NCBI GenBank assembly: GCA_016200825.1
Contig: JACQEA010000335.1
Coordinates: forward strand, 1 to 41,502
Reading direction: 5' to 3'
DNA from: Chloroflexota bacterium
GTDB lineage: Bacteria > Chloroflexota > Anaerolineae > UBA4142
Length of the DNA stretch: 41,502 bases
Position 1 is the first letter of the stretch; each line of letters begins with the position of its first letter. This document shows, piece by piece, positions 19,903 through 41,502 of the stretch. The notes under the pieces were generated by a model, which was not told the DNA's origin, did not search any database, and was given only the letters and a program-made list of their open reading frames with translations. A program made the position numbers and the translations under genes.

Positions 19903-19906
19903 ACGT

Positions 19907-22069: not shown

Positions 22070-22070
22070 T

Positions 22071-23978: not shown

Positions 23979-23991
23979 CGAGGTGTTGTAA

Positions 23992-24933: not shown

Positions 24934-26006
24934 TGCAGGAATTTGCAAATACAAACGTGCTCGTTACTGGCGGCGCGGGCTTTGTCGGCAGTAATCTAGT
25001 CCACCGATTGCTAACCGCAAATACGCACACCATTCATATCGTTGACAATTTGCTTTCAGCCGAACGCGTCAACATTCCGTCCGATCCGCGCATCCGTTTC
25101 ACAGAGGGCTCCATTGCCGATGATCGCGTCCTGGAAAAACTTTACGACGAGTACGATTTTATTTTTCACCTTAGCACCTATCATGGCAATCAAAGTTCGA
25201 TTCATAACCCGCTCGCGGATCACGATAACAATTTGCTGACCACGCTCAAACTGCTTGAACGCGTCAAACATTTCCAGCGTTTGAAAAAATGGGTTTATGC
25301 CGGCGCCGGATGCGCGGTGGCGGAAAAAACTTTTGATCAAGCGTATGCCACCTCCGAAGACGCGCCTGTATCGTTGCACATGGACAGCCCCTACTCGATC
25401 TCAAAAATCGTCGGCGAATATTACGCGGTCTATTATCACGCGCGCTACAATGTGCCAACCGTGCGCGCGCGTTTTCAAAACGTCTATGGTCCCGGCGAGA
25501 TTTTGGGCGCGGGGCAATGGCGCGGCACACCCGCCACAGTTTGGCGGAATGTTATTCCAACGTTCATCTACAAATCCCTAAGGCGTGCAGCGTTGCCGGT
25601 TGAAGGCGGAGGCGAGGCAACTCGCGATTTTATTTTCGTTCAAGATATTGTCTCGGGCTTGATCTTGTGCGCGCTCCAAGGCACCGCAGGGGATGTTTAT
25701 AATCTGGCGAGTGGTGTGGAAACGAGCATCCTGAATTTAGCGCAGTTGATCAACGAAATGACCGGCAATTCAACGCCATTGAAAATTTTACCGGCGCGCG
25801 GGTGGGATCATTCCGGCAAGCGCTATGGTAGTCCGGTGAAATCCAAACGTGAGATTGGCTTTGAAGCAAAAACAAATTTGCGCGCAGGATTGCTGAAGAC
25901 GATCGAATGGACGCGTGAGCATATGGAGATGATCGAAACCTGCATTCAAAGGCACTCGCTGCTGATGAGAGAAAATGAAAGAGCGCATCAAAACACTTTT
26001 GCTTGA
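24933..26006 (+). CDS. NAD-dependent epimerase/dehydratase (SDR; 4,6-dehydratase/decarboxylase-like)
   Basis: VLVTGGAGFVGSNLVHRLL is the Rossmann motif and YSISK is the YxxxK motif. Its start forms a TAATG 1-nt overlap with the previous gene. Confidence 0.85.
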   Translation: MQEFANTNVLVTGGAGFVGSNLVHRLLTANTHTIHIVDNLLSAERVNIPSDPRIRFTEGSIADDRVLEKLYDEYDFIFHLSTYHGNQSSIHNPLADHDNNLLTTLKLLERVKHFQRLKKWVYAGAGCAVAEKTFDQAYATSEDAPVSLHMDSPYSISKIVGEYYAVYYHARYNVPTVRARFQNVYGPGEILGAGQWRGTPATVWRNVIPTFIYKSLRRAALPVEGGGEATRDFIFVQDIVSGLILCALQGTAGDVYNLASGVETSILNLAQLINEMTGNSTPLKILPARGWDHSGKRYGSPVKSKREIGFEAKTNLRAGLLKTIEWTREHMEMIETCIQRHSLLMRENERAHQNTFA

Positions 26007-27153
26007 TGCGAATGGCGCCAAACCGCACGCTATTTTTGTCAATACAGTTTTACGCGGTGTGCTCGGAGTTCGAAATTATCTTGACGCATCTTCGCCCTTG
26101 AATCGATTACCATTCGCGGGGCGAGTATTGGGAAAATGGTATGACAGCGCTTCATATATGCTTGATTGGCGCGAGGCGTTTGATCAATCTCCCGCGCTCG
26201 AGGTTGAAAACTGCAACATTAGCAATTTGTTTGAATATGCACGATTCCGCCGCGCTGTCGCTGAATATCCCCTGATTATTATTTTACACTCGGCGGCGGG
26301 TGACGATCTTTCGCTATTGCTTAGAACCGTCAAGTGGTTTCAGCGCCGACGCGGAAAACTAGTTGTCTTTTTGGGCAACGAGTATGATCTGATGTCGGAG
26401 AAAAGCGCCTTCTTGAAAGCCGTGAGTGCCGACTTTGTTTGCACTCAACTGCCAATCGAATCGGCCCGCTGGTTATATGGTGAACTGACCGATACGCGTA
26501 TTCTAGAAATGCCGCATGCGCTCAATCCACGCGTGTATTTTCCTACTTCTTCGAGAACCCGTTCGATTGATATCGGCTTTGTTGGCGACCTTTATCCTCA
26601 CTTTATCGGAGACGTTGAACGTACTAACTTGATTTATTATTTTCAAACTCACGCACCCAATTGGAATTTGTCTATAGACATTCGCTTTCAACGGATGTCG
26701 CGTTTAAAGTGGGCTGAATTTCTAAGACACTCCGCCGGAACAATTGGAGGAGAGTCCGGCACCTATTATTTGGATCGGCGCGGGGAGATTGTTAATCGAG
26801 CCAAAGCATTCACAAAAAAAAATCCGCACGCAACATTTGAACAACTCTGGGCGAATTGTTTTCACGATTTGCCTCCGTTCGTTTCCGGTCGCGCTGTTTC
26901 GTCTCGCCACTTTGAGCCGATTGGAACTAAAACTTGCCAGATTCTGCTCGAAGGGAATTACAACCATATCCTTCAACCCGAAGAGCATTATATCGCGGTA
27001 AAAAAAGATCTCTCCAATATTGACGAAGCCGTGCGCCGGTTCAAAGACAAAACTTATCGCGATGCGATTGTGGAGCGGACCTATGAATATGCAATGGATC
27101 AACATACATATGCGCATCGCGTCAATGCGCTAATCAACGCGGTGGTGGGTTAA
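25975..27153 (+). CDS. CgeB-like / Glyco_trans_1_2-like putative glycosyltransferase, paralog 3
   Basis: VSSRHFEPIGTKTCQILLEGNYNHILQPEEHYIAVKKDLSNID...TYEYAMDQHTYAHR is present. It is collinear with paralogs 1 and 2 (FLGNEYDL in place of FxQDEY). It overlaps the upstream SDR gene by 32 nt. Confidence 0.55.
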   Translation: MKERIKTLLLDANGAKPHAIFVNTVLRGVLGVRNYLDASSPLNRLPFAGRVLGKWYDSASYMLDWREAFDQSPALEVENCNISNLFEYARFRRAVAEYPLIIILHSAAGDDLSLLLRTVKWFQRRRGKLVVFLGNEYDLMSEKSAFLKAVSADFVCTQLPIESARWLYGELTDTRILEMPHALNPRVYFPTSSRTRSIDIGFVGDLYPHFIGDVERTNLIYYFQTHAPNWNLSIDIRFQRMSRLKWAEFLRHSAGTIGGESGTYYLDRRGEIVNRAKAFTKKNPHATFEQLWANCFHDLPPFVSGRAVSSRHFEPIGTKTCQILLEGNYNHILQPEEHYIAVKKDLSNIDEAVRRFKDKTYRDAIVERTYEYAMDQHTYAHRVNALINAVVG

Positions 27154-27224
27154 TCCCCCGGCTCTCTCATGCTAAACAAAGATAAATTTTGAGCAATTTT
27201 ATTCTGCATTGATTGGAAATTGAG

Positions 27225-29189
27225 ATGTGCGGCATCACAGGTTTCTGGCAATCATCGGGCGAAGAGCAAGCATTACTATGCGCGCGCGTGACGCGCATGG
27301 CGGATTGCATCGCGCATCGCGGTCCCGATGATTCGGGTGTGTGGGTGGATGCTGCCGCCGGTTTGGCGTTGGGTTTTCGGCGGCTCGCCATTCTCGATCT
27401 CACTCCGACCGGACATCAACCGATGCTTTCCGCCGACGGACGTTGCGCGATTATTTTTAACGGCGAAATTTATAATGAACGCGAATTGCGCGCGGAGGCG
27501 GAAGCGCGCGGCGTCCGTTTTCGCGGCCGTTCCGACACCGAAGTGATTGTGGAAAACGCGGCGCGCGGCGGCGCGGAAAAAATTATTCCGCAATTGTGGG
27601 GAATGTTCGCGCTCGCAATTTGGGATCGCGAAAAAAGAGAATTGACGCTCGCGCGCGATCGTCTTGGCAAAAAGCCGCTCTATTACGCGCAATTCGGCGG
27701 AACATTTTTGTTTGGGTCTGAACTCAAAGCGTTGCGTCAGCATCCAGATTTCAAAGCCGAAATCAATCGCGCGGCTCTGGTTTTGTATTTGCGACATGGA
27801 TATGTGCCGGCGCCTCTTTCAATTTATTCCGGAGTTTACAAATTGCCGGCGGGGCATCTTCTCACCGTCCGCGCCGATCATTCGTATCACACGCGTCCGT
27901 ATTGGGACGCCGCGCAAGTAATTGAAAAGAGTGCAAACAACCGGCTGCAACTCGATGATGCGGGCGCGATCGAACAACTGGATTCGCTTCTGCGCGATTC
28001 GGTTGCGCGGCGAATGGTTGCCGATGTTCCATTGGGCGCATTTTTATCCGGCGGTATTGATTCTTCGACTGTTGTCGCGTTGATGCAGGCACAAAGCAAT
28101 CGTCCGGTAAAATCGTTCAGTATTGGTTTTCATATTCCTTCTTACAACGAAGCCACATTTGCCAAGCAGGTGGCTTTGCATCTCGGCACTGATCACACTG
28201 AGTTGTACGTCACCGCTGAAGAAGCGCAAGCCGTTATTCCGCGATTGCCTGATTTGTATGACGAACCGTTTTCGGATTCCTCGCAGATTCCAACCTTCTT
28301 GATCTCACAACTCGCGCGAAAACATGTAACGGTCGCGCTTTCCGGGGATGGCGGAGATGAATTGTTTGCCGGATATAATCGTTACAATCTCGCGATGGAT
28401 GTTTGGAATCGGATGAGATTTATTCCTTCCGCGCTTCGCCGATTGGCGGGTCGCGGAATCCGGTATCTCAATCCTGAACAATGGAACGCGATTTATCATC
28501 GCATGGAATGGATTATCCCATCAAAACTAAGGATGAATCTTGCGGGCGAAAAAATTTTCAAATTCGCTAACTTTGCCGACATTACCGACCCAGAGTTGCT
28601 TTATCTGAATCTCATTTCAATATGGAAGACTGAAGATGCCAAGAACTTGGTCTGCGACGCGTCTGAAAAATTCCGCGAGCCATTCAAATTTCCGCGCGGC
28701 TTGCTGGGCTTTCTCGAGCAAATGATGTTTTTGGATCTAGTTACTTATTTGCCGGACGATATTCTCGCGAAAGTAGATCGCGCCAGTATGGGCGTTAGTC
28801 TCGAAGTGCGCGCGCCTTTTCTCGATCATCGCGTCGTGGAATGGGTGTGGAGACTGCCGAATCGGTTTAAGCAAAGAGATGGACAATCGAAATGGTTATT
28901 GCGGCAAGTGTTGTCCAAATATGTTCCAACGGAATTAAGCGAGCGACCCAAAATGGGATTTGGAGTTCCGATTGATGTTTGGCTCCGAGGTCCGCTAAAA
29001 GACTGGGCAGAAAATTTATTGAGTGAAGAAAAACTGAGAGACGCCGGTCTCTTCCGTCCAGAGCCAATCCGTAAAGTGTGGGCAAGTCATTTGAAAGGCA
29101 ATACCAACGAGCAATACAAATTGTGGGCAATCTTGATGTTCCAAGCGTGGAACGAGCGCTGGATGAAAGCTGAAAAAATAGTACGATGA
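27225..29189 (+). CDS. asnB: Asparagine synthase family glutamine amidotransferase, copy 3
   Basis: MCGITGFW begins at ATG 27225 (the ORF-track TTG 27213 was trimmed so that Cys is residue 2). The PP-loop reads FLSGGIDSST. Confidence 0.85.
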   Translation: MCGITGFWQSSGEEQALLCARVTRMADCIAHRGPDDSGVWVDAAAGLALGFRRLAILDLTPTGHQPMLSADGRCAIIFNGEIYNERELRAEAEARGVRFRGRSDTEVIVENAARGGAEKIIPQLWGMFALAIWDREKRELTLARDRLGKKPLYYAQFGGTFLFGSELKALRQHPDFKAEINRAALVLYLRHGYVPAPLSIYSGVYKLPAGHLLTVRADHSYHTRPYWDAAQVIEKSANNRLQLDDAGAIEQLDSLLRDSVARRMVADVPLGAFLSGGIDSSTVVALMQAQSNRPVKSFSIGFHIPSYNEATFAKQVALHLGTDHTELYVTAEEAQAVIPRLPDLYDEPFSDSSQIPTFLISQLARKHVTVALSGDGGDELFAGYNRYNLAMDVWNRMRFIPSALRRLAGRGIRYLNPEQWNAIYHRMEWIIPSKLRMNLAGEKIFKFANFADITDPELLYLNLISIWKTEDAKNLVCDASEKFREPFKFPRGLLGFLEQMMFLDLVTYLPDDILAKVDRASMGVSLEVRAPFLDHRVVEWVWRLPNRFKQRDGQSKWLLRQVLSKYVPTELSERPKMGFGVPIDVWLRGPLKDWAENLLSEEKLRDAGLFRPEPIRKVWASHLKGNTNEQYKLWAILMFQAWNERWMKAEKIVR

Positions 29190-30028
29190 ATGAAATGCCT
29201 AACGTAGATGTTCAAACCATCCGCGGATTCGGCGACGAATGGACGCGCTATGATCAGTCGGAGCTTTCTGATGCGGAACGCGCGGACATTTTTCAGCAGT
29301 ACTTTTCTATTTTTCCATGGGAATTCTTGCCGGAGAATGCAACAGGTTTCGATCTCGGTTGTGGGAGTGGTCGCTGGGCAAAAAGTGTCGCGCCGCGCGT
29401 GGGTAAACTGCATTGCATTGATCCCAGCGAAAAAGCAATGCGCGTGGCGCAACGCAATTTGCGCGCAGTTCCAAATTGCGAATTTCATCTCGCCAGCGTA
29501 GATCAAATTCCTCTCTCAGACCATTCAATGGATTTCGGTTATGCGCTCGGCGTGCTTCATCACGTGCCCGATACTCGCGCGGGCATCCGCGCATGCGCGA
29601 TGAAACTCAAACCCGGCGCACCGCTGTTGCTTTATCTCTACTATGCGTTCGACAGTCGCCCACTTTGGTTTCGTGCGATCTGGAAGCTGTCCGATTTATT
29701 CCGCCGCATAATTTCACAACTCCCGTTTTTTCTAAAGTCCAGCATTAGTTGGTTAATTGCGGCGACAATTTATTTTCCGCTTGCGCGCGTGGCACGCGGA
29801 TTGGAAAAGATCGGCTGGAATGTTGAGCCCATTCCACTCTCGCAATATCGTCGGCGCAGTTTTTACATCATGCGCACTGATGCGCTAGATCGGTTTGGGA
29901 CTAGACTTGAAAAACGATTTACGCAAAAAGAAATCCGGGAGATGATGGAGCAAAGTGGCTTGGAGCGCATCACATTCTCACCGCATGTTCCGTATTGGTG
30001 CGCATTAGGGTACAAAAAGCAAACTTGA
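29186..30028 (+). CDS. Class I SAM-dependent methyltransferase
   Basis: Motif I is GFDLGCGSGRW, followed by CIDPS and LHHVPD...LKPGAPLLL. Its start forms an ATGA overlap with asnB copy 3. A hydrophobic segment lies near the C-terminus (ISWLIAATIYFPLA). Confidence 0.75.
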   Translation: MNEMPNVDVQTIRGFGDEWTRYDQSELSDAERADIFQQYFSIFPWEFLPENATGFDLGCGSGRWAKSVAPRVGKLHCIDPSEKAMRVAQRNLRAVPNCEFHLASVDQIPLSDHSMDFGYALGVLHHVPDTRAGIRACAMKLKPGAPLLLYLYYAFDSRPLWFRAIWKLSDLFRRIISQLPFFLKSSISWLIAATIYFPLARVARGLEKIGWNVEPIPLSQYRRRSFYIMRTDALDRFGTRLEKRFTQKEIREMMEQSGLERITFSPHVPYWCALGYKKQT

Positions 30029-30126
30029 GTTGGTCCGCCAAAAGATTACGTTGGGATTTATAAGTAGCGAAGAGAGAATCAAGGATTTGAATTTGATCGA
30101 ATATCAAAGGTTGGAAACATTTAGGT

Positions 30127-31338
30127 ATGATAGACGAAATTCGCGTTGCACATATCACTGCGACTGATTTGTCCTTGCACTATCTCTTACTAAATCAACT
30201 ACGATTTCTCCAAAAAAAAGGATACATCGTTACCGGAATTTCTTCGCCCGGCGCGGAGACCAAGTACCTCAATCAGACTAGCATTCGTTTTCTTCCCATC
30301 CAAATTACGCGCCATCCGTTTACCCCCATTCATGATCTCCGCGCTCTGTGGCAACTATATCAAACATTCCGCCGCGAGCGCTTTACAATTGTCCACACCC
30401 ATACGCCCAAACCGGGCTTGTTGGGACAACTCGCCGCAAAGGTTGCCGGCGTGCCGGTTATCGTCAATACACTGCACGGATTTTATTTTCACGAACGGAT
30501 GACTCCGCTCTTGAGGCGATTTTACATCGCGATTGAAAAAATCGCGGCTGCATGTTCTGATGTGATCCTCTCGCAAAATTCCGAAGATGTCGAGACCGCA
30601 ATTCAGGAAGGTATTTGTCAGCGCGAGAAAATTAAATTTCTTGGCAATGGCATTGACTTGGACCGCTTCGATCCCGGTCGGATGGAGAGAGAAAAAGTAA
30701 ATCGAACCCGCGCGGACCTTGGCATCGCGAAGAACGCGCGGGTCGTTGGCTTTGTCGGACGGTTAGTGCGTGAAAAAGGTCTGCTTGAACTTTTCGCGGC
30801 GATGCGCTTGGTTAGTGAACGTGTGCCGAATGTAATCTTGTTGGTTGTTGGGCCGGTAGATTCTGAAAAGCGCGACGCGCTTTCATCGGAGACCGCGCGT
30901 GAATATGGGATTGAAGCCAATTGCCGTTTTACCGGCCTTCGTCAAGATATGCCGGAACTATATTCTCTAATGGACGTTTTTGTCCTGCCTTCGCATCGCG
31001 AAGGTTTTCCGCGCGCGCCGATGGAAGCATCAGCAATGGGCGTGCCGTCAATCGTTACGGATATTCGCGGATGTCGCCAAGTTGTCGAACAGGGACAGAA
31101 TGGACTGCTAGTACCGCTCGGCGACGTGAACGCGCTTGCGGACGCAATCACCACGCTTCTCAATGATTCTGAAATCGCGCGCAAAATGAGCCAAGCCGCG
31201 CGCCGCATCGCGCAAGAACGTTTCGACGAACGATTTGTGTTTGAGCGCGTTCAGGAAGAATACGCGCACCTCTTGCGAAACAAACACATTCCGATTCCTC
31301 TTCCCCAAACTTCCGTGAATCGAACAAACTCGCTATAA
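30127..31338 (+). CDS. Glycosyltransferase family 4 (GT-B, group 1)
   Basis: The E-x7-E region reads PSHREGFPRAPMEASAMGVPSIVTDIRGCRQVVEQGQNGLLVP. Confidence 0.85.
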   Translation: MIDEIRVAHITATDLSLHYLLLNQLRFLQKKGYIVTGISSPGAETKYLNQTSIRFLPIQITRHPFTPIHDLRALWQLYQTFRRERFTIVHTHTPKPGLLGQLAAKVAGVPVIVNTLHGFYFHERMTPLLRRFYIAIEKIAAACSDVILSQNSEDVETAIQEGICQREKIKFLGNGIDLDRFDPGRMEREKVNRTRADLGIAKNARVVGFVGRLVREKGLLELFAAMRLVSERVPNVILLVVGPVDSEKRDALSSETAREYGIEANCRFTGLRQDMPELYSLMDVFVLPSHREGFPRAPMEASAMGVPSIVTDIRGCRQVVEQGQNGLLVPLGDVNALADAITTLLNDSEIARKMSQAARRIAQERFDERFVFERVQEEYAHLLRNKHIPIPLPQTSVNRTNSL

Positions 31339-31348
31339 TTGACTTGTC

Positions 31349-31960
31349 GTGGGCAAAACCATCCAACTTGGAATCAAGCGCGCATTCGATGTGGTTGTTT
31401 CTATCGCCGCGCTCGTTGTCCTTTCACCTCTCATCGCGCTGATTGCGATTGCGATCAAGCGCGATAGTCCCGGTTCAATTTTTTTCGTGCAAGAACGCGT
31501 CGGCAAAGATGGCAAACCATTCCGCGCGATAAAATTCCGGACGATGATTGTAAACGCGGAAAAAATTGGACTGGGGCTCGAAATCGCACACGACGACGCG
31601 CGCATTACGCGGGTCGGACATGTGTTGCGTCGCTGGACGCTCGATGAAATTCCACAACTCTTCAACGTTTTGCGTAACGAGATGAGTGTCATTGGTCCAC
31701 GTCCCACAGTGCAGAGTCAAGTTGAACGCTATACTCCTTGGCAACGCCGCCGACTCACGATGAAACCGGGCATGGCAGGTTGGGCGTGGATTCATGGGCG
31801 AAATAATTTGGCGTGGTCGCGGCGGATTGAGTTGGATGTCTGGTATGTAGAGCATTGGTCATTGTGGCTCGACGTGAAAATTTTTTTTATAGCAGTCCTA
31901 ATTTTATTTCGTCATGAAGGCGTGTACGGTACCGACGGCATCGCGCGGGATTTTGAATAA
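31349..31960 (+). CDS. Small monotopic phosphoglycosyl transferase (bacterial sugar transferase family, PglC/WbaP C-domain-like), initiating enzyme
   Basis: KRAFDVVVS..., the re-entrant helix, SPGSIFFVQERVG, FRAIKFRTM, DEIPQLFNVLRNEMSVIGPRP are present. The start is GTG 31349. Confidence 0.85.
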   Translation: MGKTIQLGIKRAFDVVVSIAALVVLSPLIALIAIAIKRDSPGSIFFVQERVGKDGKPFRAIKFRTMIVNAEKIGLGLEIAHDDARITRVGHVLRRWTLDEIPQLFNVLRNEMSVIGPRPTVQSQVERYTPWQRRRLTMKPGMAGWAWIHGRNNLAWSRRIELDVWYVEHWSLWLDVKIFFIAVLILFRHEGVYGTDGIARDFE

Positions 31961-31964
31961 TTCG

Positions 31965-32588
31965 ATGAAAAAAATAGCATTGCTCGGCGCAGGCGGGCAC
32001 GCGCGTGTGGTGTGGGATACTTTGCATGCATGCGCGGACTGCTCCGTCGTTGCGGTATTGGACGAAGACCCAAAACGCTGGGGCGAAAAATTTTTCGATC
32101 TGGAAATTCGCGGACCACTCGATACGATTCGCGATACGAGCGCGGATGCAGTCGTTATTGGCATTGGAGATAATCGCGCGCGTCAGCGCGTATACGAGCA
32201 AGTGAAAATGCTAAAGATTCCGCTAGTCAATGCAATTCATCCGCGCGCGGTGATTGCAACGAACGTGGAATTGGGCGAAGGTATAGTCGCGTTTGCGAAT
32301 GTCGTTGTAAATATCGGCGCGCGGATTGGCGATAACGTTATTCTGAACACCGCTTGCACGATTGATCACGATTGCATTATCGGCGCGCACGCGCATATCG
32401 CGCCGGGCGCGCATCTTGCCGGCAGTATTCGAGTTGGTGCGGGCACGCTCGTGGGTATTGGCGCCGCGATTATTCCAAATCTCGTCGTAGGCGATTGGTC
32501 GATAATTGGTGCGGGCAGTGCGGTTGTTCGCGATGTTCCCGCCGGCGCAACGGTCGTAGGCGCGCCTGCCCGCGTGGTGGAGAAATAA
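31965..32588 (+). CDS. NeuD/PglD-family sugar N-acetyltransferase (hexapeptide repeat)
   Basis: The N-terminus MKKIALLGAGGHARVV is followed by a left-handed beta-helix C-terminus (IGAHAHIAPGAHLAGSIRVGAGTLVGIGAAI). The ORF-track start 31914 was trimmed to ATG 31965. Confidence 0.8.
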   Translation: MKKIALLGAGGHARVVWDTLHACADCSVVAVLDEDPKRWGEKFFDLEIRGPLDTIRDTSADAVVIGIGDNRARQRVYEQVKMLKIPLVNAIHPRAVIATNVELGEGIVAFANVVVNIGARIGDNVILNTACTIDHDCIIGAHAHIAPGAHLAGSIRVGAGTLVGIGAAIIPNLVVGDWSIIGAGSAVVRDVPAGATVVGAPARVVEK

Positions 32589-32589
32589 A

Positions 32590-33738
32590 TTGGCGCTAAA
32601 AATTTCAATGTCCGAACCGGATATTACGCAAGTTGAAATCGACGCAGTTAATCGCGTGTTGCAAACGCCCCACCTCAGTATCGGTCCGGTGATTGATGAA
32701 TTCGAACACGCGTGGGCGCGGTTTGTCGGCGCGCGTTACGCGGTCGGCGTGTCGAGCGGGACAGCCGGTTTGCATTGCGCGGTGATCGCGGCTGGAGTCG
32801 GTGCGGGTGACGAAGTGATCACGACGCCATTCAGTTTTGTCGCGTCGGCGAACGTGATGCTTTATCAAAATGCAACGCCGATCTTTGCCGATATTGATTC
32901 CCAAACGTTGAACATTGACCCGAATCAGGTCGAAGATAAAATTAAATCGCGATTACGCGCTGGCGCGCGCTTCAAAGCAATCATGCCGGTGCACGTGTTT
33001 CATCAGCCGTGCGACATGGACCCATTGATGGAAATTGCCGCGCGCTATGATTTGCTCGTCATCGAAGATGCCTGCGAGGCGATGGGCGCACAATACAACG
33101 GACGCGCAGTTGGTACTTTTGGCAAAGCGGCAGTCTTTGCTTTTTATCCTAACAAACAAATGACGACCGGCGAAGGCGGGATGATCGTGACGGACGATAC
33201 AGAATGGGCGCAGCTCTTTCGCAGTCTGCGTAATCAGGGGCGCGACGAAAATGGAACGTGGTTGCATCACATCCGACTCGGTTACAATTATCGTTTAGAC
33301 GAATTGAGCGCGGCATTGGGTCTGGCACAGTTGAGTCGCATTGACGAACTATTGGAAAAAAGGGAGCGCGTCGCGCAAATGTATAATGCGCGCCTGCGCG
33401 GAATGCCGGGCGTTCAGATTCCGTTCATTGCGCCACAGACGACGCGTAGCAGTTGGTTTGTGTACGTCGTCCGAATTGCATCCGAGATTGATCGCGACGC
33501 GGTTTTGCGCGAGCTCGCTGCGCGTGGAATTCCGGCGCGCCCGTACTTTACGCCGATTCATCTTCAACCATTTTATCGGACCCGCTTTGGTTTTCAAGAA
33601 GGCGATTTCCCGATCACCGAACAAGTTGCACGCACCACGCTGGCTTTGCCTTTTCATAGCAACCTGAATGCAGAAAAAATTGATTTCATTGGCGAGACGC
33701 TTTCCCAAATTCTCGATTCGCGACGGTCGTTGCAATGA
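32590..33738 (+). CDS. DegT-family sugar aminotransferase (third copy; PglE-like by context)
   Basis: GAGDEVITTPFSFVASAN, IEDACEAMGA and FYPNKQMTTGEGG (PLP-Lys) are present. TTG 32590 or ATG 32608 are the possible starts. Confidence 0.85.
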   Translation: MALKISMSEPDITQVEIDAVNRVLQTPHLSIGPVIDEFEHAWARFVGARYAVGVSSGTAGLHCAVIAAGVGAGDEVITTPFSFVASANVMLYQNATPIFADIDSQTLNIDPNQVEDKIKSRLRAGARFKAIMPVHVFHQPCDMDPLMEIAARYDLLVIEDACEAMGAQYNGRAVGTFGKAAVFAFYPNKQMTTGEGGMIVTDDTEWAQLFRSLRNQGRDENGTWLHHIRLGYNYRLDELSAALGLAQLSRIDELLEKRERVAQMYNARLRGMPGVQIPFIAPQTTRSSWFVYVVRIASEIDRDAVLRELAARGIPARPYFTPIHLQPFYRTRFGFQEGDFPITEQVARTTLALPFHSNLNAEKIDFIGETLSQILDSRRSLQ

Positions 33739-35576
33739 CATTGCGTAATCGCCATTTCCTCCTTTTAGATATTGTTCTCACTCTGCTCTCCGTAGCGTTC
33801 GCGTTCAGTCTCCGTTTCGACACGTTGAATGCCTTTGACTATTTCGCGCAAAGTTGGTTCTTTGTGCCGCTCTTGCTTATCTTTCGCACGCCATTGTTGT
33901 TTCTGTTCGGCGTGTACCGTCGTTTGTGGCATTATGCGAGTGTTAACGAATTTTTTTCTCTCGGTCAAGCGATCGGATTGAGTTCGATACTGACGGGCGC
34001 GGTCATCGTGCTACTCGTCGTGCCGATAGTTGGTGTTTCAGGGTTTCCGCGATCGGTGATTCTATTAGAAGCGTTGCTCGCGCTCGTGATGATCGGCGGT
34101 TTGCGTTTTACATTGCGCTTGTCGCCGAACGTGCGACGACGGTCATTTTTCGTTTTAAGCACGGTTAAACAACGCGTTCTTGTTTTTGGCGCCGGAGATG
34201 CGGGCTCGCTCATTGTACGTGAAATGATTGCCAATCCTGCATTGGGCTTGGAACCAATTGGATTTGTTGATGATGATTTCACCAAGAAAGGCATGCGGAT
34301 TCACAATCTGCCGGTTTTAGGCGACCGCGCTTCTGTTGGAAAAATCGTCGCGGAATGTAATATTGACGCGGCAATCGTCGCGATGCCGACCGCGCCGGGC
34401 AAAGTTATCCGCGAAGTGATCGAAGCGTGCCGGCAAGCCAGTATTCCGTTCAAAACGATTCCGGGTTTGTACGAAATTCTAAGTGGGAAAGTGCAGGTCA
34501 ATGCGATTCGTCAAGTGGAATTGGAAGATTTGCTTCGGCGCGATCCAGTAACGATTGACTTGGATGAGGTCGGCAAATATTTGCAAAACGCGCGGGTGTT
34601 GGTTACTGGCGCCGGCGGTTCGATTGGCTCTGAGTTGTGTCGCCAAATCACGCGTTTTCATCCCGCCGCGTTGATTCTATATGAATTGAGCGAAAACAAT
34701 CTCTATCAAATTGATCGCGAACTTCAACAATCCGGCACGCGCATAGTTCCCGTTTTGGGAGACGTGCGCGATTCAGAAAAAATCGCGAGCGTATTCGCGC
34801 GCGATCAACCGCAAGTTGTTTTCCACGCCGCGGCGCACAAGCACGTGCCGCTGACAGAACTCAACCCGGATGAAGTGATCGCCAATAATGTTTTGGGTAC
34901 GCGCAATCTTTTGGACGCTTGCGTACAACATCGCGTCCGCCGATTTGTGCTAATCTCGACCGATAAAGCCGTAAATCCACGCAGTGTGATGGGAGCGAGC
35001 AAGCGCGTAGCGGAAATGATGGTGCAGAGCAAATTGTATCGCAACGAAAATTTTTCACCGGTGGCAGTCCGGTTCGGTAATGTGTTGGGGAGTAACGGAA
35101 GTGTTGTGCCTTTATTCAAGGAGCAAATCGCCGCAGGCGGACCAGTGACCGTGACGCACTCAGACATGGAACGCTATTTCATGACAATTCCGGAAGCGGT
35201 CAGCTTAATCATCCAAGCGGGCGCGCTAGGTCAAGGCGGAGAAATCTTTGTTCTGGACATGGGCGAACCGGTGAAGATTACCGATCTCGCCAAAGATTTA
35301 ATTCGATTATCCGGCTTTGAACCGGATCGCGATATTCCAATTGTTTTTACCGGCACACGCCCCGGTGAAAAGTTACGCGAGGAATTGTTCGCCCATAACG
35401 AAACGCGCGTGCTCACCAAACATCCGCAAATTCAGATCGCGCGCGGCGCGCCAATGAATGATAACTTTTTGCGAGTGGCAATCGAAATGTTGAGTGCGGA
35501 TATACAGAATCACGATCCAACTAGTCTCAAGCGAAAATTGCAGGAGATCGTTCCAGAGTTTTCGATAAACACCTAA
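33735..35576 (+). CDS. Membrane-anchored UDP-GlcNAc 4,6-dehydratase family (CapD/WbpM/PglF-like polysaccharide biosynthesis protein)
   Basis: Four N-terminal hydrophobic segments are followed by two Rossmann regions (VLVFGAGDAGS; VLVTGAGGSIGSELCRQI) and TDKAVNP. Its start forms an ATGA overlap with the upstream gene. Confidence 0.85.
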   Translation: MTLRNRHFLLLDIVLTLLSVAFAFSLRFDTLNAFDYFAQSWFFVPLLLIFRTPLLFLFGVYRRLWHYASVNEFFSLGQAIGLSSILTGAVIVLLVVPIVGVSGFPRSVILLEALLALVMIGGLRFTLRLSPNVRRRSFFVLSTVKQRVLVFGAGDAGSLIVREMIANPALGLEPIGFVDDDFTKKGMRIHNLPVLGDRASVGKIVAECNIDAAIVAMPTAPGKVIREVIEACRQASIPFKTIPGLYEILSGKVQVNAIRQVELEDLLRRDPVTIDLDEVGKYLQNARVLVTGAGGSIGSELCRQITRFHPAALILYELSENNLYQIDRELQQSGTRIVPVLGDVRDSEKIASVFARDQPQVVFHAAAHKHVPLTELNPDEVIANNVLGTRNLLDACVQHRVRRFVLISTDKAVNPRSVMGASKRVAEMMVQSKLYRNENFSPVAVRFGNVLGSNGSVVPLFKEQIAAGGPVTVTHSDMERYFMTIPEAVSLIIQAGALGQGGEIFVLDMGEPVKITDLAKDLIRLSGFEPDRDIPIVFTGTRPGEKLREELFAHNETRVLTKHPQIQIARGAPMNDNFLRVAIEMLSADIQNHDPTSLKRKLQEIVPEFSINT

Positions 35577-35606: not shown

Positions 35607-38012
35607 TTACTTCCTCACGATCACTTGACCAATCTTTGTTTCGCCCACAGACAAACGATCCGCGCTTTTCTGCAACGAAATTATTAAATCATAATTTTCA
35701 GAAGGCAGAGACGTGGGCAGAACAAGATCGTGCCAATCTAATAATACTTCGCCAACTTGCCAGCGCGTCGTCGCATACGCGCCCGCGGCGGGACGATCGA
35801 TTTGTTCAAACGCGATTACCCCCCGCCGATCCACGAGTTGAACCGCGATCTGATAATCCTCGCGCGGTTTTTCGCGCGCGCGCCAATACAATCCCAATGC
35901 AAGTGTTTCGCCCGGCGCAATTTGCTCCGGCAATTGTGTGGATCCCAAAAAGCGAATTTCGCGCATATCAACGCGCAATGGATTTTCGATGAAAAGCAAG
36001 TCGGCCGGAATGTTTGTTGTATCTTTGCTAACGGCAATCCGATCCAAAATAATTTCTTGCGCATCTTGCGCGATCAAGCGCGTTCCGGTTTGCGGATTCC
36101 AGACGCCAATGGTGATCGCGTATTCGCCCGGCGGCATTGTCCGCGGCAAGGCAAGTGTATATTGATCGCGATAAATTCCTCCGGCGCGCCAACTGGTGGT
36201 CGGTATTATTCCAGAGATCGGCTCGCGATCATCCTCCGCCCAAATGTGACCGCGCGAATCAATCAGATGAGCAAGCATAATATAGCGCGCACCGAGATCG
36301 CGATTTGCTTTCCATTCAACCACTACCCGCACGCTATCACCACCGCGGACGTTCGAGTTCGTCAAGATTGAATAACCAAGCAGGGTGATGTCGCCGTAAT
36401 TCGCATCAAGCGCGCGATGAAATGCGTTTGGCGCGGAAGAATAACCGAGCAAAGCGGCGCCATTATCAATCTGGATATGTCCAGCCGATTCGTACTGGAT
36501 CCAACCGTTGTCTAATTTTTTCCCGGGCGGCAAAGTTTTCGCGCGCAAGAGAAAATAGCCGTCGGTCTCGATCACGCTTTCAAAATAACCGGAGGCGCGC
36601 AAATTTTCCCACGTTGGTTTTTGAAACGCATACCACGCGCGCGTGCTATCGCCAAAAACAGACTGGGCATCGCGATGATCTATGTTGGGAGAAAATTCGA
36701 CGACGGAGAATTTTCGCGCATCCGAGAGCGGCATAAATAATTCCGGCTGCGCGACCACTTTGGATCCGCTTGGAATTTGCGTAATGATCTGATGTCCCAA
36801 TTGTGAATGCGCATCAAGAACAAAGTTGGAAGGTGAGAAAATATTTGCCCACGTGGAGGGCAAATAAAGTTGCGAACTGATAATGAGTAAAACGCCAAGC
36901 GCGGCTTGCGTTCGCATCGATTTATCAAGCAACCGCCGTATGCCGTAAATCGTACCGAAAAAAAGAAATGGCAAAAGGGGTGCTTGATAGTAAAAAGTTG
37001 GATCGGTCTGTTGCGGCAAATCACTCAACAACGTGTACGCCCATGCGGGGAGTGATATCGCGAAGACTTGCCAACCGATCAGCGGCAAGAACGCGAGGGG
37101 AGTTAACAAGTCGATACTAAATTCAATTTTTGTCGGAACCAGAATGTGCGCCAGCGCGATATCGGGGCGCGTGATCAGCGTTTTGATTACTTGATCGAAG
37201 GTTGTGCCCAAATAGGCATAGCGCTGTTCAAATTGAGGATAGATGGCGCCTTTGGCAGAAGCCGGATACAAAACAAGGATGATCAAAAGCGCCAAACCTA
37301 TCCCGGCTAAAAAAATAAAACCTCCCAAAAGTCTTTGACGTTGAACGAAAAAAATAAAGAGAGCAAATCCCGCCGCAATAAATGCGATTTCTTGTTTGAG
37401 CATCAACGCTAATCCCAAGCTGATGAAAAATGGAACATACCGCCGGCGCAAAAGAAAAAAGAGCGCGAACGAAAGCAATGGGACTGCAAGTTTGATCTCG
37501 TAAAAGACTGCCTGATTAATCACCAGCACAGACGGAGAAACCCAAAACGCGATTGCAACGATTAAGGCAAGCATCGGTCCAATCTGTTTGCGCCCAATCC
37601 AATACAACGGAAGCGCAGAAATCGCGAGTCCAAGCGATTGAACGATCAAAATCGCTTTTGGATTTGCCCACACTGAATAAACCGGAATCAGGGCGATGAG
37701 CAACGGATTAAAACGGTAGAGACTAAAAGAAAATGTTTGACCGCGCAAATAGCCAAGCAATATCCCGTCGAAATCGGCAAAATCGTGATAGCTGTTGAAC
37801 GAGTCATAGTTGTGCAATGCGTGCGTCGGCAATCCAATCAGCGCCACCAGCGCGAGCAGATAAAAAATCTTATCCACTCGGCGCGGGGTCAACCATTGTT
37901 GTAAGGATTTCAATTTATCAAGTTGCGCGACCGGCGGCGCAATAATATACATCGCGAGCGCGCTGATGAGCGCAAAAATAAATGCAACGGGATACGATTG
38001 AAAAATATTCAT
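35607..38012 (-). CDS. Large polytopic membrane protein, DUF2079-like N-terminal domain plus duplicated extracytoplasmic C-terminal module
   Basis: The 801-aa product has more than 10 hydrophobic segments. It is collinear with the paralog at 38062..40317 (PLYWIGRKQIG / PLYWFARKEIG; KQEIAF / KEDVAL; GYFESV..DGYFLLR / GYFETV..DGYFLAR). Confidence 0.6.
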   Translation of the reverse strand: MNIFQSYPVAFIFALISALAMYIIAPPVAQLDKLKSLQQWLTPRRVDKIFYLLALVALIGLPTHALHNYDSFNSYHDFADFDGILLGYLRGQTFSFSLYRFNPLLIALIPVYSVWANPKAILIVQSLGLAISALPLYWIGRKQIGPMLALIVAIAFWVSPSVLVINQAVFYEIKLAVPLLSFALFFLLRRRYVPFFISLGLALMLKQEIAFIAAGFALFIFFVQRQRLLGGFIFLAGIGLALLIILVLYPASAKGAIYPQFEQRYAYLGTTFDQVIKTLITRPDIALAHILVPTKIEFSIDLLTPLAFLPLIGWQVFAISLPAWAYTLLSDLPQQTDPTFYYQAPLLPFLFFGTIYGIRRLLDKSMRTQAALGVLLIISSQLYLPSTWANIFSPSNFVLDAHSQLGHQIITQIPSGSKVVAQPELFMPLSDARKFSVVEFSPNIDHRDAQSVFGDSTRAWYAFQKPTWENLRASGYFESVIETDGYFLLRAKTLPPGKKLDNGWIQYESAGHIQIDNGAALLGYSSAPNAFHRALDANYGDITLLGYSILTNSNVRGGDSVRVVVEWKANRDLGARYIMLAHLIDSRGHIWAEDDREPISGIIPTTSWRAGGIYRDQYTLALPRTMPPGEYAITIGVWNPQTGTRLIAQDAQEIILDRIAVSKDTTNIPADLLFIENPLRVDMREIRFLGSTQLPEQIAPGETLALGLYWRAREKPREDYQIAVQLVDRRGVIAFEQIDRPAAGAYATTRWQVGEVLLDWHDLVLPTSLPSENYDLIISLQKSADRLSVGETKIGQVIVRK

Positions 38013-38020
38013 AAGTCTGC

Positions 38021-38070
38021 TTGTGACGAAACCGCTGACGCATTATAATGCGAGTAATCGAATGAAACAA
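38021..38070. promoter_or_regulatory. Symmetric pair of overlapping divergent sigma70-like promoters sharing the palindrome CATTATAATG
   Basis: On the + strand, TTGTGA (38021..38026) is followed by 17 nt and TATAAT (38044..38049). On the - strand, TTGTTT (complement of 38065..38070) is followed by 17 nt and TATAAT (complement of 38042..38047). Confidence 0.35.
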
Positions 38071-40317
38071 TTTGCCGCGCGCGCTGACCGTATTTTTTTG
38101 CTAATGGTCGCGATGTATGCACTCACTTTCACCGCGCTTTCAATCCTTCGGCATCTGTCTTTCAACACCGGCGGATTCGATCTTGGCATTTTCGATCAAG
38201 TCGTTTGGAATTCTTTGCACGGCAGATTGTTCGAAAGTTCGATCTTACCCGACGCGCCGCTATTGATCAGCCAACGTTTTGCGCTGATTATGCTCGCGTT
38301 TGTTCCGCTCTACGCGCTGTGGTCGAGCCCAATCGTTCTGCTTGTGGCGCAAACGCTGGGGATTGTCGCGGGCGCGTTTCCCTTGTATTGGTTTGCAAGA
38401 AAAGAAATTGGACACAATCTCGCGTGCATGATCGTCGCCGCGTATTTTCTCTACCCCGCGCTCGAGTACGTCAATTTATTTCAATTCCACGAAATCGCGC
38501 TCGCGATTCCACTGCTTTCGTTCGCGACTTTTTTTCTGCTCCGCCAATCTTATCGCGCGTTTTTGTTAACCCTGGGCGCGGCGCTCTTGGTCAAAGAAGA
38601 TGTTGCGCTCGTCGCGATCGCGTTCGGCGTTTACATTTTTGTTTTTCAACGCGCGCGGCGATTGGGTTTGGCGGTGACATTTTTTTCCGCGGTTTGGACG
38701 ATTTTGTTGTTGCAATTCATCATTCCATTTTTTCGCGGCGACGAGTTTGCGGGCGCGGGCTTTTATTATTTCGGCAGCGGAATCGCACAAGGCCGCGGTC
38801 GCTACGATTATCTCGGCGCGAATCTATTCGAAATTCTCGCGACGCTGATTACGCAACCGAATGTGGTCCTGCAGCACATTTTAATTCCCGCCAAGATCGA
38901 ATTTATCGCCGCACTGTTTGCGCCGCTCGCGTTTCTGCCGCTCTTCGGCGCAGCAACGTTGATGGCATTGCCGACGCTCGCGATTTCATTGCTCAGCGAT
39001 TATCCGCCGCAATTCTCGATCATCTTTCACTACACCGCCGCGTTAATTCCATTTCTTTTCTTCGGCGCGATTGCCGCGCTGCGCCGCGTCCGCGCGCGCA
39101 ATCCGCGCTCCGCGCGATTTTCCGGCGCGATATTTTTGCTCGCCTCGCTCGCGAGTTATTTTACTCACGCGCCGGGTCCGTTTGCCGCGCGCTTTGAAAC
39201 ATTCCGCTACGCGCCCACCGATCACGACGCGCGCGCGGAAAATTTTCTCGGCGCGATCCCGCGCGATGCGCGCGTCGTCGCGCAAACCGAACTGACCGCG
39301 CATCTCTCCGAACGCGCGCGCATTTATGAATTCCCCGGCATTCCCGACTATCGTCAAGCCGATTATTTGATCGGCGACACCACGCGTTTGTGGTACAGCG
39401 TGCATCGCGAAATTTGGGCGCAGTGGTTCGCGACCGGCTATTTTGAAACCGTGCGCCAAGACGACGGTTATTTTTTGGCGCGCCGCGTCGCGCCCGCGCA
39501 TGTGCTCAATTTGAAATTTGACGGCGCGCTGAATCTCATTGGTTATACAATTCCAATCTCGACCACATTGCGCGGCGGAATGACTCTTCGTCCGATTTTG
39601 GAATGGCGCGCGGATTTACCAATGCTCGAACGTTATCGTTTTCAAATCGCGTTGTTTGATGCGCGCGGTCATCTCTGGGCGCGCGATGATCGCGAGCCGC
39701 AAGAAGGAAATTTGCCGACAACAAAATGGATCGTCGGAGAAAATAGCGGCGATCAATTCGCGCTCGCGCTCGAATCAACGATGCCGCCGGGGGAATATCA
39801 AATCGCGGTGAGCGTGTGCGACGCGCACGAAAAATGTTTGCGCGCGGGCGAACGCGGCGACGCGCCGATCATCGGCACGCTGCGAATCGAAAAAGATAAA
39901 TCATCTATTACCGCGAGCCAATTGCAAATCCCCAATCCGTTTTTCGTGGATCTGAATGAGATGCGCCTCTTGGGATTTACCGCGTTGCCGAAAAAAATTC
40001 TGGCGGGCGAAACTTTTTCACTCGGCGTCTTCTGGCGCGCGCGCGAAAAACCGCGCGGCGATTATCTCGTCGCGATTCAATTGCGCGATCGCGCGGGACG
40101 TATCGCGCTGGAACAAGTTTCTAAACCGGCGGATGGCGCGTATCCTACGCCGGAATGGAACGCGGGCGAAGTGCTGTTGGACTGGCATGATGTCGCGTTG
40201 CCCGAAAATTTTTTGGCGGGCGAGTACAATTTGTTTGTCGTTTTGCGCGCGGCGGAAAGTAAACTAGTTTTAGGCGAAGTATTGATCGGACCAGTAATGG
40301 TCGAACAAAAAAAATAA
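38062..40317 (+). CDS. Large polytopic membrane protein, DUF2079-like, paralog of 35607..38012
   Basis: FNTGGFDLGIFDQVVWNSLHG, PLYALWSSPIVLLVAQTLGIVAGAFPLYWFARKEIG, FHEIALAIPLL and VKEDVALV match my recollection of DUF2079. The start is either ATG 38062 or GTG 38023 (the ORF-track start). Confidence 0.65.
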   Translation: MKQFAARADRIFLLMVAMYALTFTALSILRHLSFNTGGFDLGIFDQVVWNSLHGRLFESSILPDAPLLISQRFALIMLAFVPLYALWSSPIVLLVAQTLGIVAGAFPLYWFARKEIGHNLACMIVAAYFLYPALEYVNLFQFHEIALAIPLLSFATFFLLRQSYRAFLLTLGAALLVKEDVALVAIAFGVYIFVFQRARRLGLAVTFFSAVWTILLLQFIIPFFRGDEFAGAGFYYFGSGIAQGRGRYDYLGANLFEILATLITQPNVVLQHILIPAKIEFIAALFAPLAFLPLFGAATLMALPTLAISLLSDYPPQFSIIFHYTAALIPFLFFGAIAALRRVRARNPRSARFSGAIFLLASLASYFTHAPGPFAARFETFRYAPTDHDARAENFLGAIPRDARVVAQTELTAHLSERARIYEFPGIPDYRQADYLIGDTTRLWYSVHREIWAQWFATGYFETVRQDDGYFLARRVAPAHVLNLKFDGALNLIGYTIPISTTLRGGMTLRPILEWRADLPMLERYRFQIALFDARGHLWARDDREPQEGNLPTTKWIVGENSGDQFALALESTMPPGEYQIAVSVCDAHEKCLRAGERGDAPIIGTLRIEKDKSSITASQLQIPNPFFVDLNEMRLLGFTALPKKILAGETFSLGVFWRAREKPRGDYLVAIQLRDRAGRIALEQVSKPADGAYPTPEWNAGEVLLDWHDVALPENFLAGEYNLFVVLRAAESKLVLGEVLIGPVMVEQKK

Positions 40318-40348: not shown

Positions 40349-40466
40349 CTTACGCACTGTCATTCTGAACGAAGTGAAGAATCTTGTTTTTCCAATGAAC
40401 ATCTGAATACAATTGGAACACCAAGACCCTTCGCTGACGCTCAGGGTGACGTTACTGCGTAACGTC
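40349..40466. repeat. About 118-bp MITE/REP-like element: imperfect inverted arms about 28 nt long around a 35-nt spacer, plus a perfect 8-bp/3-nt-loop hairpin
   Basis: The left arm gtcattctgaacgaagtgaagaatcttg (40359..40386) matches the reverse complement of caagacccttcgctgacgctcagggtgac (40422..40450), with 21 Watson-Crick pairs, 3 G-U pairs and 1 bulge. The flanks share ttacgca / tgcgtaa. The hairpin gacgttac-tgc-gtaacgtc lies at 40448..40466. Confidence 0.5.
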
Positions 40467-40824
40467 AATTGCTAAACTGATAGACGCGCCATTGCCCGGC
40501 GAAAAAAACTTGACTCCACCCTGCTTGATTTAATTCCTCGTTTTGCGTAATAAAGTAGAGCGGACGCGCGGTGCGTTTTTGCCACGCGGCAATCTCGACC
40601 CAATTGCGCCGCTTTAAAATATTTTCTTTGAACACAACCGACGGATCATTGACCGGTTCCGTAACGGGCAACGGCGTGAGCGAGCCTTCGCGCCACGTCA
40701 CATATTCCAACCACATTGGATTTTCCAAGAACATGGCATTCGGCGCGGTCTGCGCGCGAATCCAATCGTACAGCGCGATTTCATCCGGCTGTATCACGAC
40801 GCGCGCTTGTCCGCTCACAATCAT
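40465..40824 (-). CDS. Soluble C-terminal domain of the downstream membrane protein, in a different frame (frame-broken gene or separate small ORF)
   Basis: The plausible protein sequence is MIVSGQARVVIQPDEIALYDWIRAQTAPNAMFLENPMWLEY...RPLYFITQNEELNQAGWSQVFFAGQWRVYQFSN. The upstream part of the listed 40465..41337 ORF is Arg-rich off-frame sequence that overlaps the membrane-protein frame. Confidence 0.4.
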   Translation of the reverse strand: MIVSGQARVVIQPDEIALYDWIRAQTAPNAMFLENPMWLEYVTWREGSLTPLPVTEPVNDPSVVFKENILKRRNWVEIAAWQKRTARPLYFITQNEELNQAGWSQVFFAGQWRVYQFSN

Positions 40825-40841
40825 TCCACCGACGCCAATGA

Positions 40842-41502
40842 TCAACGCCGCCGCGCCACCGCATTCCCCGTGAGCAATTTCGTCAGCGCGCGATAAACGT
40901 ACTCTAAAAAGAAAAATGCGGCGAGCAAAACTCCGGTCCAAACTTCCCAGATCAACACGCGCGTCGCGCGCCATCGCGACCAATCGCGCGCGAGCGCGAT
41001 CAGTCCGGGAATGATGAGCAAAGTGAAAACCACGCCGAGTTCGGTTGGAATTTCCCACGGGCGCACGAAAAAAATCCAGAATCCGGTGACCAGCGTTTCG
41101 CTTAACTTGCCGATTCGCAACGCGTACGGCACAAGCCAAAAGGATGCGATGCCGAGCGATAATGCAAAAATCGCGGCGAAGCGACGCGCGTCCGCGCGTT
41201 GCGCGGTAAACCACAACGCGCTGATGATCGACGCGGCGAGAAGAAAAACAACGAGCATCGAATGATGATGAACAAAATAAATGCTTGCGAACGTTATCGC
41301 CGCGAAAATACCAGACGCGCGACCATGCGCGCACCACACGAGCGCGAACGCGGTGAGCAACAGCGTCATCGCGGTTTCATTCGGCAAACCACCCCAGCGA
41401 TAATAATCCAGACTTCCTAAATTCGCGATGAACGCGTACGCGAACGCGGACGCGCGCGCGAGTGAATCGCGCCCGAAAAAATTTTTTCCGATCACATACA
41501 CG
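40842..41502 (-). CDS. Polytopic membrane protein (GT-C / O-antigen-polymerase-like), 5' end beyond the right edge
   Basis: More than 219 aa of consecutive hydrophobic segments (…AITFASIYFVHHHSMLVVFLLAASIISALWF…LVTGFWIFFVRPWEIPTELGVVFTLLIIPGLIAL…). The reading frame is open to the window edge. It stops at TGA 40844..40842. Confidence 0.55.
   Translation of the reverse strand, partial: VYVIGKNFFGRDSLARASAFAYAFIANLGSLDYYRWGGLPNETAMTLLLTAFALVWCAHGRASGIFAAITFASIYFVHHHSMLVVFLLAASIISALWFTAQRADARRFAAIFALSLGIASFWLVPYALRIGKLSETLVTGFWIFFVRPWEIPTELGVVFTLLIIPGLIALARDWSRWRATRVLIWEVWTGVLLAAFFFLEYVYRALTKLLTGNAVARRR

Follow-up and report, generated by a model that had tools for sequence, protein, structure and literature searches.

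A divergent pair of DUF2079 membrane proteins with a predicted GT-C(A) fold beside a glycan operon in Chloroflexota

Campylobacter PglB works with a di-N-acetylbacillosamine pathway of the PglC/D/E/F type, and the actinobacterial EmbA/B/C and AftD (GT53 and relatives) form paralog arrays that build wall polysaccharide from polyprenyl-phosphate sugars. To our knowledge, the ways in which Chloroflexota assemble and anchor their surface glycans are essentially unknown. The subject here is a head-to-head gene pair, termed A (minus strand) and B (plus strand), which encodes two large membrane proteins of the DUF2079 family and directly follows a glycan operon in a Chloroflexota bacterium (Anaerolineae, UBA4142; assembly GCA_016200825.1, contig JACQEA010000335.1). 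The window, meaning the whole stretch of DNA that was analysed, is this entire 41.5-kb contig, whose ends lie at 1 and 41502.

Described extracytoplasmic glycosyltransferases offer several points of comparison. ORF12 of Citrobacter youngae O1, a GT136 enzyme, is a GT-C glycosyltransferase with a carbohydrate-binding module that decorates an O-polysaccharide in the periplasm after export by an ATP-binding cassette (ABC) transporter; the lipid-monophosphate sugar it uses comes from a dedicated synthase and is carried across by a flippase (PMC11127046). The concept of GT-C enzymes with periplasmic carbohydrate-binding modules is cited in the same work for EmbA/B/C and AftD (PMC11127046). Among the GT-C(A) families of the CAZy database tabulated by Meitil et al., four of five use monosaccharides linked to a lipid phosphate, and GT66 alone uses an oligosaccharide linked to a lipid diphosphate (PMC10920833).

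A and B are full-length paralogs, both belonging to DUF2079. With a probability of about 0.6, they are proposed to be extracytoplasmic GT-C(A) glycosyltransferases, A modifying or extending the exported polymer and B adding single sugars. Their mode of action would, by analogy, come nearest to that of extracytoplasmic transferases of the ArnT, Gtr or GT136 type, with a carbohydrate-binding region added on. GT136 ORF12 is the closest functional precedent, a likeness of architecture and setting, no sequence relationship having been tested or seen: in each case a GT-C protein with an extra extracytoplasmic module is encoded near a locus for an ABC-dependent glycan linked to undecaprenyl diphosphate (Und-PP), and short GT2 and sugar-tailoring genes stand beside B paralogs in two further loci (L017 and L040). 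Unlike these three-component GT136/Gtr systems, the window contains neither synthase nor flippase, and the DUF2079 genes lie outside the operon. Four elements of the analysis were found in no paper of the collection searched: the split into orthogroups A and B, the synteny of A with phosphoglycosyl transferase (PGT) genes, the C-terminal repeat common to DUF2079, PMT_2 and PF10131 proteins, and the GT2 cassettes beside B.

Family membership and predicted fold

Both A (160.8 bits) and B (262.6 bits) score above the gathering threshold of PF09852 (28.2 bits) over nearly the whole profile, which all 58 aligned relatives match too. The two proteins are 36% identical and collinear from end to end (BLASTP, E = 1e-174). 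B has 284 homologs at E ≤ 1e-10 among the candidates scored; the named homologs all come from metagenome-assembled genomes (MAGs) of Chloroflexota, Anaerolineae or Anaerolineales, and a search of NCBIfam returned nothing for A or B. An earlier note, made from the DNA letters alone, had described the pair as divergently transcribed, collinear DUF2079-like paralogs of about 750-800 residues separated by 10-49 bp. This description is borne out by the profile scores, the alignment and the open reading frames (ORFs) of 801 and 764 or 751 residues. The longer version of B begins at an alternative GTG at 38023 (38023..40317, plus strand) and leaves a spacer of 10 bp, and the shorter begins at the ATG at 38062, used by the public gene call P0001, and leaves 49 bp.

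Structures were modelled with AlphaFold2, for B at full length with a 66-sequence alignment (predicted local distance difference test, pLDDT, 95.7; predicted TM-score, pTM, 0.89) and for A over residues 1-500, its N-domain (pLDDT 93.7), and both models were compared with the Protein Data Bank (PDB) by Foldseek. In the B model, helices form a membrane module that ends near residue 370; an alpha/beta domain (387-475) and two beta-sandwiches (480-610 and 625-748) follow. For the A N-domain, all 18 matches with E < 0.01 fall among the GT-C enzymes, namely STT3 of yeast and human, PglB, AglB, ArnT, DPY19 and ALG9. The lowest E-values belong to oligosaccharyltransferases (7oci_F, 8pn9_A), with STT3, PglB and AglB ranging from 4e-6 to 9e-4; the highest TM-score is that of ArnT (0.51 when normalised to the query, TMq), and PIG-M, PIG-U and Pmt4 come next with weaker E-values. 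The membrane part of the full-length B model retrieves ALG12, ArnT and ALG9. Foldseek gives GT-C enzymes (STT3, PglB, AglB, ArnT, DPY19 and ALG9/12) a probability of 1.00, and the other membrane proteins listed reach at most 0.11. WaaL, RodA and FtsW structures are absent from the listed Foldseek matches of A and B, and neither protein matches the Wzy_C hidden Markov model (HMM). On the strength of these models, the membrane domain of both proteins is predicted with high confidence to adopt the GT-C(A) fold.

The predicted first external loop opens with an acidic residue at a position that corresponds to the catalytic acidic residue of GT-C(A) enzymes, as in the structures of ArnT, PglB and PMT. 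This residue, D40 of B in the numbering of the 751-residue protein, is invariant in the 66-sequence alignment; across the family, every A ortholog and nearly every B protein has D or E at the position. Short helices lie within the loop in the models, as they do in GT-C enzymes. In A the loop is shortened and the B-type motif DQxxWNSLxGRLxE...DAP is lost or reduced; conserved positions of the membrane core (Y/W/R, E and K) are retained. Judging from sequence conservation, D77 is the proposed catalytic base of A, and D40 of B is presumed to be its equivalent. Further conserved acidic residues of B are the second Asp of the FDQ motif and E144 (751-residue numbering), with counterparts in A. A also carries a hydrophobic N-terminal extension, shared by 11 of its 14 closest orthologs and lacking in B. 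The earlier note had read the FDLGIFDQ motif in the plus copy, the diverged HDFADFDGI and an extra N-terminal helix in the minus copy, and had likened the architecture to GT-C, with acidic residues in the first loop; the motifs lie where it placed them (Table 1), and the helix and the architecture recur in the models.

Two groups of known enzymes come closest in structure. ArnT of C. metallidurans (PDB 5F15), a PMT_2-type GT-C(A) enzyme (GT83/GT39), is among the best matches of B as well (TMt 0.49), and resembles both proteins in its multi-helix core, in the catalytic Asp that opens the first external loop and in the extracytoplasmic alpha/beta domain after the last helix. It differs in that A and B lack a significant match to the PMT_2 HMM (PF13231 matches neither protein even at E ≤ 1) and in that the loop motif, xDLxxFDQxxWNS, is a different one. 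The GT66 enzymes STT3, PglB and AglB give the lowest E-values for the membrane domain of A, but A and B have neither an STT3 match in Pfam nor the WWDYG motif (no WWD string occurs in either), the periplasmic domain of GT66 is different, and the TM-scores normalised to the target are 0.27-0.40; the likeness is confined to the fold.

The soluble C-terminal part, an alpha/beta domain followed by two tandem beta-sandwiches, spans about 380 residues; the earlier note was right about a polytopic N-terminal and a soluble C-terminal region, but its length of about 330 residues for the latter was too short. An insertion of about 35 residues, specific to A, precedes the sandwich modules of that protein. 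Between A and B, conservation is highest in the last sandwich, at about 50-55% identity against about 39% for the membrane domain. By Foldseek, the tail of B resembles generic tandem sandwiches of the immunoglobulin/fibronectin type III kind (RbmA, transglutaminase C-domains, arrestins).

The beta-sandwich repeat, of about 130 residues, is not confined to DUF2079. The tail of A can be aligned, at 25-32% identity, to two to four copies of it in PMT/PMT_2 or PF10131 membrane proteins, and PMT_2 proteins that neighbour DUF2079 genes in other MAGs carry the identical tail type. At L010 (12214-21680), a DUF2079 gene is followed by five consecutive genes, four of which match PMT_2 in Pfam and all five of which encode the C-terminal beta-sandwich module; Anaerolineae PMT_2 proteins have both the repeat and the gene arrays in common with DUF2079. 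The commonest match of the repeat at sequence level is Wzt_C (PF14524), found in 17 of 58 family members at E < 0.01 (best E = 1.2e-6) and precomputed as a label on several homologs; A itself matches it weakly at residues 552-638 (16.7 bits, below the gathering threshold of 30.4). The Wzt of the adjacent operon carries a Wzt_C domain. In Wzt, however, the domain is cytoplasmic, whereas the modules of A and B are predicted to be extracytoplasmic, and the structural matches of the B tail are generic. The tandem beta-sandwiches probably hold a glycan or a wall acceptor.

Genomic settings of orthogroups A and B

Orthogroup A comprises about 15 proteins of 46-55% identity, with the next relatives at 40% or less. 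In eight of nine loci, A abuts the PGT/PglF-like end of a glycan locus. A PglF-like gene lies directly at the 3' end of A in the window and in L005, a Bac_transf PGT gene does so in L004, L027, L036, L037 and L038, and in L003 a PglF-like gene lies on the 3' side with two genes between. The type of glycan locus varies, being ABC-type in the window, Wzy_C-containing in L004, GT4/PMT_2-containing in L003 and GT2-containing in L038. The opposite flank of A varies as well: it is taken by a head-to-head B gene in the window and in L003-L005, by a PMT_2 gene in L027 and L038, and by PatA_N, small-GTPase and V4R genes in L036 and L037.

Two observations concern the surroundings of A. A conserved trio encoding a PatA_N protein, a Ras/Arf-like small GTPase and a V4R-domain protein lies upstream of the A-type gene in L036-L038. 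L003 and L004, both from the MAG with assembly GCA_040960315.1, hold two head-to-head A/B pairs. The pairs are only about 53-54% identical, stand beside different glycan loci and lead into one common set of membrane genes; either the whole module was duplicated long ago or the bin is mixed.

Orthogroup B is large and multi-copy, its genes often standing in tandem or within PMT_2 arrays and usually far from glycan loci. Three B genes in a row follow a PMT_2 gene in L009/L039, and MAG H21_272 has four separate B loci. A PGT neighbour was found in none of about 27 B-only loci, against a PGT or PglF-like neighbour in eight of nine A loci (Fisher's exact test, p = 3e-7, with no correction for phylogeny), in a scan by BLAST probe that would miss MraY-type PGTs. 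The synteny with glycan loci, which the earlier note had proposed as a check, is supported for A only. Nor is the family tied exclusively to such loci, as B occurs mostly where there are no glycan genes and one A-B tandem (L035) lies beside microcompartment genes; occurrence apart from the glycan locus was one of the grounds on which the earlier note would have had its idea refuted.

In two MAGs, B paralogs flank a PMT_2-like protein of about 630 residues, a DegT aminotransferase, a GNAT protein and a short GT2 of 239-252 residues (L017 4737-9083, L040 12391-16728). The layout of this DegT-GNAT-GT2 cassette recalls, by analogy, the supply of a lipid-monophosphate amino-sugar donor of the ArnB/ArnC/ArnT type. 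B-type genes also recur next to microcompartment genes (CsoS1D_N, EutN_CcmL, aldehyde dehydrogenase) and a PAS-guanylate cyclase gene (L001 1828-5362, L035 5891-9469, L040 19193-22394).

Proposed roles and alternatives

In the proposed mechanism, each protein would combine a multi-helix membrane module, an Asp-led first external loop, an extracytoplasmic alpha/beta domain and two beta-sandwiches. A would be tied to the Und-PP glycan pathway begun by the neighbouring PGT, and most likely alters or lengthens the polymer after ABC export. B would belong to a multi-copy battery of enzymes whose most likely activity is the addition of single sugars carried on polyprenyl monophosphate. Both the donor use typical of GT-C(A) families and the GT2 cassettes next to B paralogs point to the transfer of single sugars, for B at any rate. 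Single-sugar addition with donors of the lipid-monophosphate type is no less likely than the role of a missing ligase.

Several points weigh against these assignments. The TM-scores to GT-C enzymes are moderate (0.44-0.51). Sequence and profile searches of the PDB gave no solved relative, the best match being a lytic polysaccharide monooxygenase beta-sandwich at E = 0.12, and a literature search for DUF2079 found no mention of it and no characterised member. Links to other GT-C families are weak at the level of sequence: weak PMT_2 matches occur in just 3 of 58 DUF2079 relatives, and hhalign, with the DUF2079 membrane profile set against six PMT_2 N-domains, gave a non-significant probability of 7.6%. 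A is convergent with the operon end, its own end lying 30 bp from the PglF-like stop, and is not co-transcribed with the operon. The window contains no GT2-type polyprenyl-phosphate sugar synthase and no flippase of the GtrA/MATE/SMR type, so a three-component scheme is locally incomplete. In the L035 tandem, the ninth A locus, no PGT or PglF gene lies at the 3' end of A and no PGT is in view. Finally, the C-terminal modules of A and B show no excess identity within a locus, which argues against their recognising a locus-specific glycan; as the last sandwich is also the best conserved, the modules are read as binding something invariant instead.

The earlier note had suggested that one or both proteins supply the transfer step for which it could recognise no enzyme in the operon. 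A, alone or with B, would then transfer the ABC-exported Und-PP glycan en bloc to an S-layer or other protein, to peptidoglycan or to a lipid, replacing WaaL, PglB/PglL or LCP in a monoderm lineage. This is unlikely, and a ligase role is plausible for A only. Pfam confirms the note's inventory, an operon with an initiating PGT and an ABC exporter whose products have no match to Wzy_C, STT3, LCP or Wzz, and the oligosaccharyltransferases that give A its lowest Foldseek E-values use oligosaccharides linked to a lipid diphosphate. The retention of A at the PGT end of differing glycan loci is the pattern of a generic step on Und-PP-linked products; it suits generic transfer better than glycan-specific decoration and keeps the idea of a ligase alive, at low odds. 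The conservation of the last beta-sandwich throughout the family is as expected for an invariant acceptor.

Donor type, however, is not readable from the fold, in which the highest TM-score is that of ArnT, and diphosphate-linked donors occur in one of the five listed GT-C(A) families. With donors in the fold class mostly monosaccharides, with no likeness of A and B to Wzy_C or to GT-C(B) ligases of the WaaL/SEDS type, and with neither the WWDYG motif nor the STT3 match, the suggestion of en bloc transfer by either protein is not upheld. In addition, L004 holds a Wzy_C protein along with A, and the window is a single contig (1-41502), so that a ligase may lie elsewhere in the genome. Also unlikely is the more specific idea that A represents a new class of en bloc transferase. 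On this view A, a GT-C(A) enzyme with no sequence kinship to STT3, WaaL or LCP, would deliver complete Und-PP polymers of varied structure to a common envelope acceptor held by the beta-sandwiches in monoderm Chloroflexota.

Less probable still is that A and B are unrelated to the operon and serve, with the third membrane-protein gene and PMT_2 genes, a separate extracytoplasmic glycosylation, either protein O-glycosylation or stepwise synthesis of a wall polymer from polyprenyl-phosphate sugars in the manner of Emb, Aft and PMT, their adjacency reflecting the clustering of envelope genes. B is multi-copy, one of the four H21_272 loci holding three tandem copies, and it sits mostly in housekeeping or microcompartment contexts beside PMT_2 genes; A and B are transcribed apart from the operon, and the genes downstream of B in relatives encode more membrane and PMT_2 proteins. 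The tandem B triplets recall embCAB, although EmbA/B/C and AftD are not among the listed Foldseek matches, have another domain order and belong to Actinobacteria. Chance or recent common ancestry alone hardly explains why A adjoins PGT/PglF genes in eight of nine loci, given an ortholog identity of 46-58% and the variation of the other flank.

A further reading, very improbable, makes one of the two (A more likely than B) a GT-C-like subunit without catalytic activity that binds the lipid-linked substrate or pairs with its paralog (compare PIG-U in the glycosylphosphatidylinositol transamidase, PMT1/PMT2 and EmbA/EmbB): the shorter loop without its B-type motif, the head-to-head arrangement kept in four loci and the presence of PIG-U among the weaker fold matches would fit, but the first acidic residue is D or E in all orthologs, the Y/W/R, E and K core positions are kept, and in L036-L038 and L027 no B gene adjoins A.

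If A decorates an exported polymer, as the preferred assignment to the GT-C(A) glycosyltransferases would have it, it would found a new GT-C family in CAZy; if A were a ligase, it would constitute a new enzyme class for glycoengineering. In either case the analysis gives DUF2079 a confident fold, a candidate catalytic Asp, an accessory module common with PMT_2-type enzymes and a division between PGT-linked A and multi-copy B, and A is a concrete candidate for heterologous reconstitution with an ABC-dependent glycan pathway of the PglC/D/E/F type.

Features of the window and neighbouring genes

Table 1. Coordinates of the DUF2079 pair, its domains and its neighbours in the window
Feature	Coordinates	Strand	Basis or remark
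DUF2079 paralog A, 801 residues	35607..38012	-	ORF list; PF09852 E = 8e-47
Extra N-terminal transmembrane helix of A (residues 1-30)	37923..38012	-	AlphaFold2 helix 3-29
First-loop motif of A, HDFADFDGI	37761..37787	-	residues 76-84; first acidic residue D77
Extracytoplasmic alpha/beta domain of A (predicted)	36537..36860	-	residues ~385-492; AlphaFold2 secondary structure
Two tandem beta-sandwich modules of A	35610..36395	-	residues ~540-801; alignment to B
Divergent spacer between A and B	38013..38061	.	promoter-like TTGTGA-17-TATAAT at 38021-38049 (+)
DUF2079 paralog B	38062..40317	+	751 residues from ATG 38062; PF09852 E = 1e-77
First-loop motif of B, FDLGIFDQ	38176..38199	+	residues 52-59 of 764-residue ORF; first Asp D53 = D40 in 751-residue numbering
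Extracytoplasmic alpha/beta domain of B (predicted)	39199..39495	+	residues 380-478; AlphaFold2
Two tandem beta-sandwich modules of B	39499..40314	+	residues 480-612 and 620-751; AlphaFold2
Third membrane-protein gene	40465..41502	-	cut by contig end; frame break and ~45 residues missing near 40857
Glycan operon	259..35576	+	35 kb
ABC exporter: two ATPases and Wzm ABC-2 permease	13790..17042	+	Pfam
Wzm	16230-17042	+	ABC-2 permease
Operon end: PglC-like PGT (Bac_transf), then PglD-, PglE- and PglF-like genes	31349..35576	+	PglF-like gene adjoins A
Bac_transf PGT	31349-31960	+	operon

The promoter-like site in the spacer stands just upstream of the ATG of B and is a consensus match only, of a kind expected 5.8 times by chance in the 5.4-kb region scanned. 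The scan for promoters and terminators gave fewer sites than shuffled sequence, and this site was the only well-placed one.

The third membrane-protein gene, on the far side of B, has homologs of 607 residues in L003 and 584 residues in L004, which it matches in two frames at 52-62% identity (tblastn) and which also come after the B gene. Its frame break is either an assembly error or the mark of a pseudogene. The protein gave only faint matches to DUF6541, DUF2298 and DUF6798, belongs to a family of six members and received no GT-C assignment.

The operon encodes a MarR-type regulator, WecB- and WbpA/B/D/E-like proteins, methyltransferases, a GNAT protein and WbqC, along with glycosyltransferases of the GT4 and CgeB-like types. 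The homologs of PglC/D/E/F genes that close it are a point of likeness to the Campylobacter Pgl system. By a crude hydropathy count, several hydrophobic segments occur in the operon only in Wzm (seven) and in the N-terminus of the PglF-like protein (four). Of the tandem ABC ATPase genes (13790-16226, plus strand), only the second encodes a Wzt_C domain; its listed TTG start overlaps the first gene by 110 bp, so the true start is probably later.

Three AsnB-type glutamine amidotransferases (8177-10048, 21924-23978 and 27213-29189, plus strand) are encoded alongside the WbpA/B/D/E-like genes, which suggests amidated (di)acetamido-uronic acid residues in the glycan. The operon also encodes three paralogous soluble proteins with no or weak Pfam matches (18355-19902, 20744-22069 and 25975-27153, plus strand). 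These proteins have in common a C-terminal motif, SPRxFEA..R...L.EG.Y.G...P..HYI.LKKD.SN.D, and one of them matches Glyco_trans_1_2 (CgeB-like); the three are probably the chain-building glycosyltransferases of the operon.

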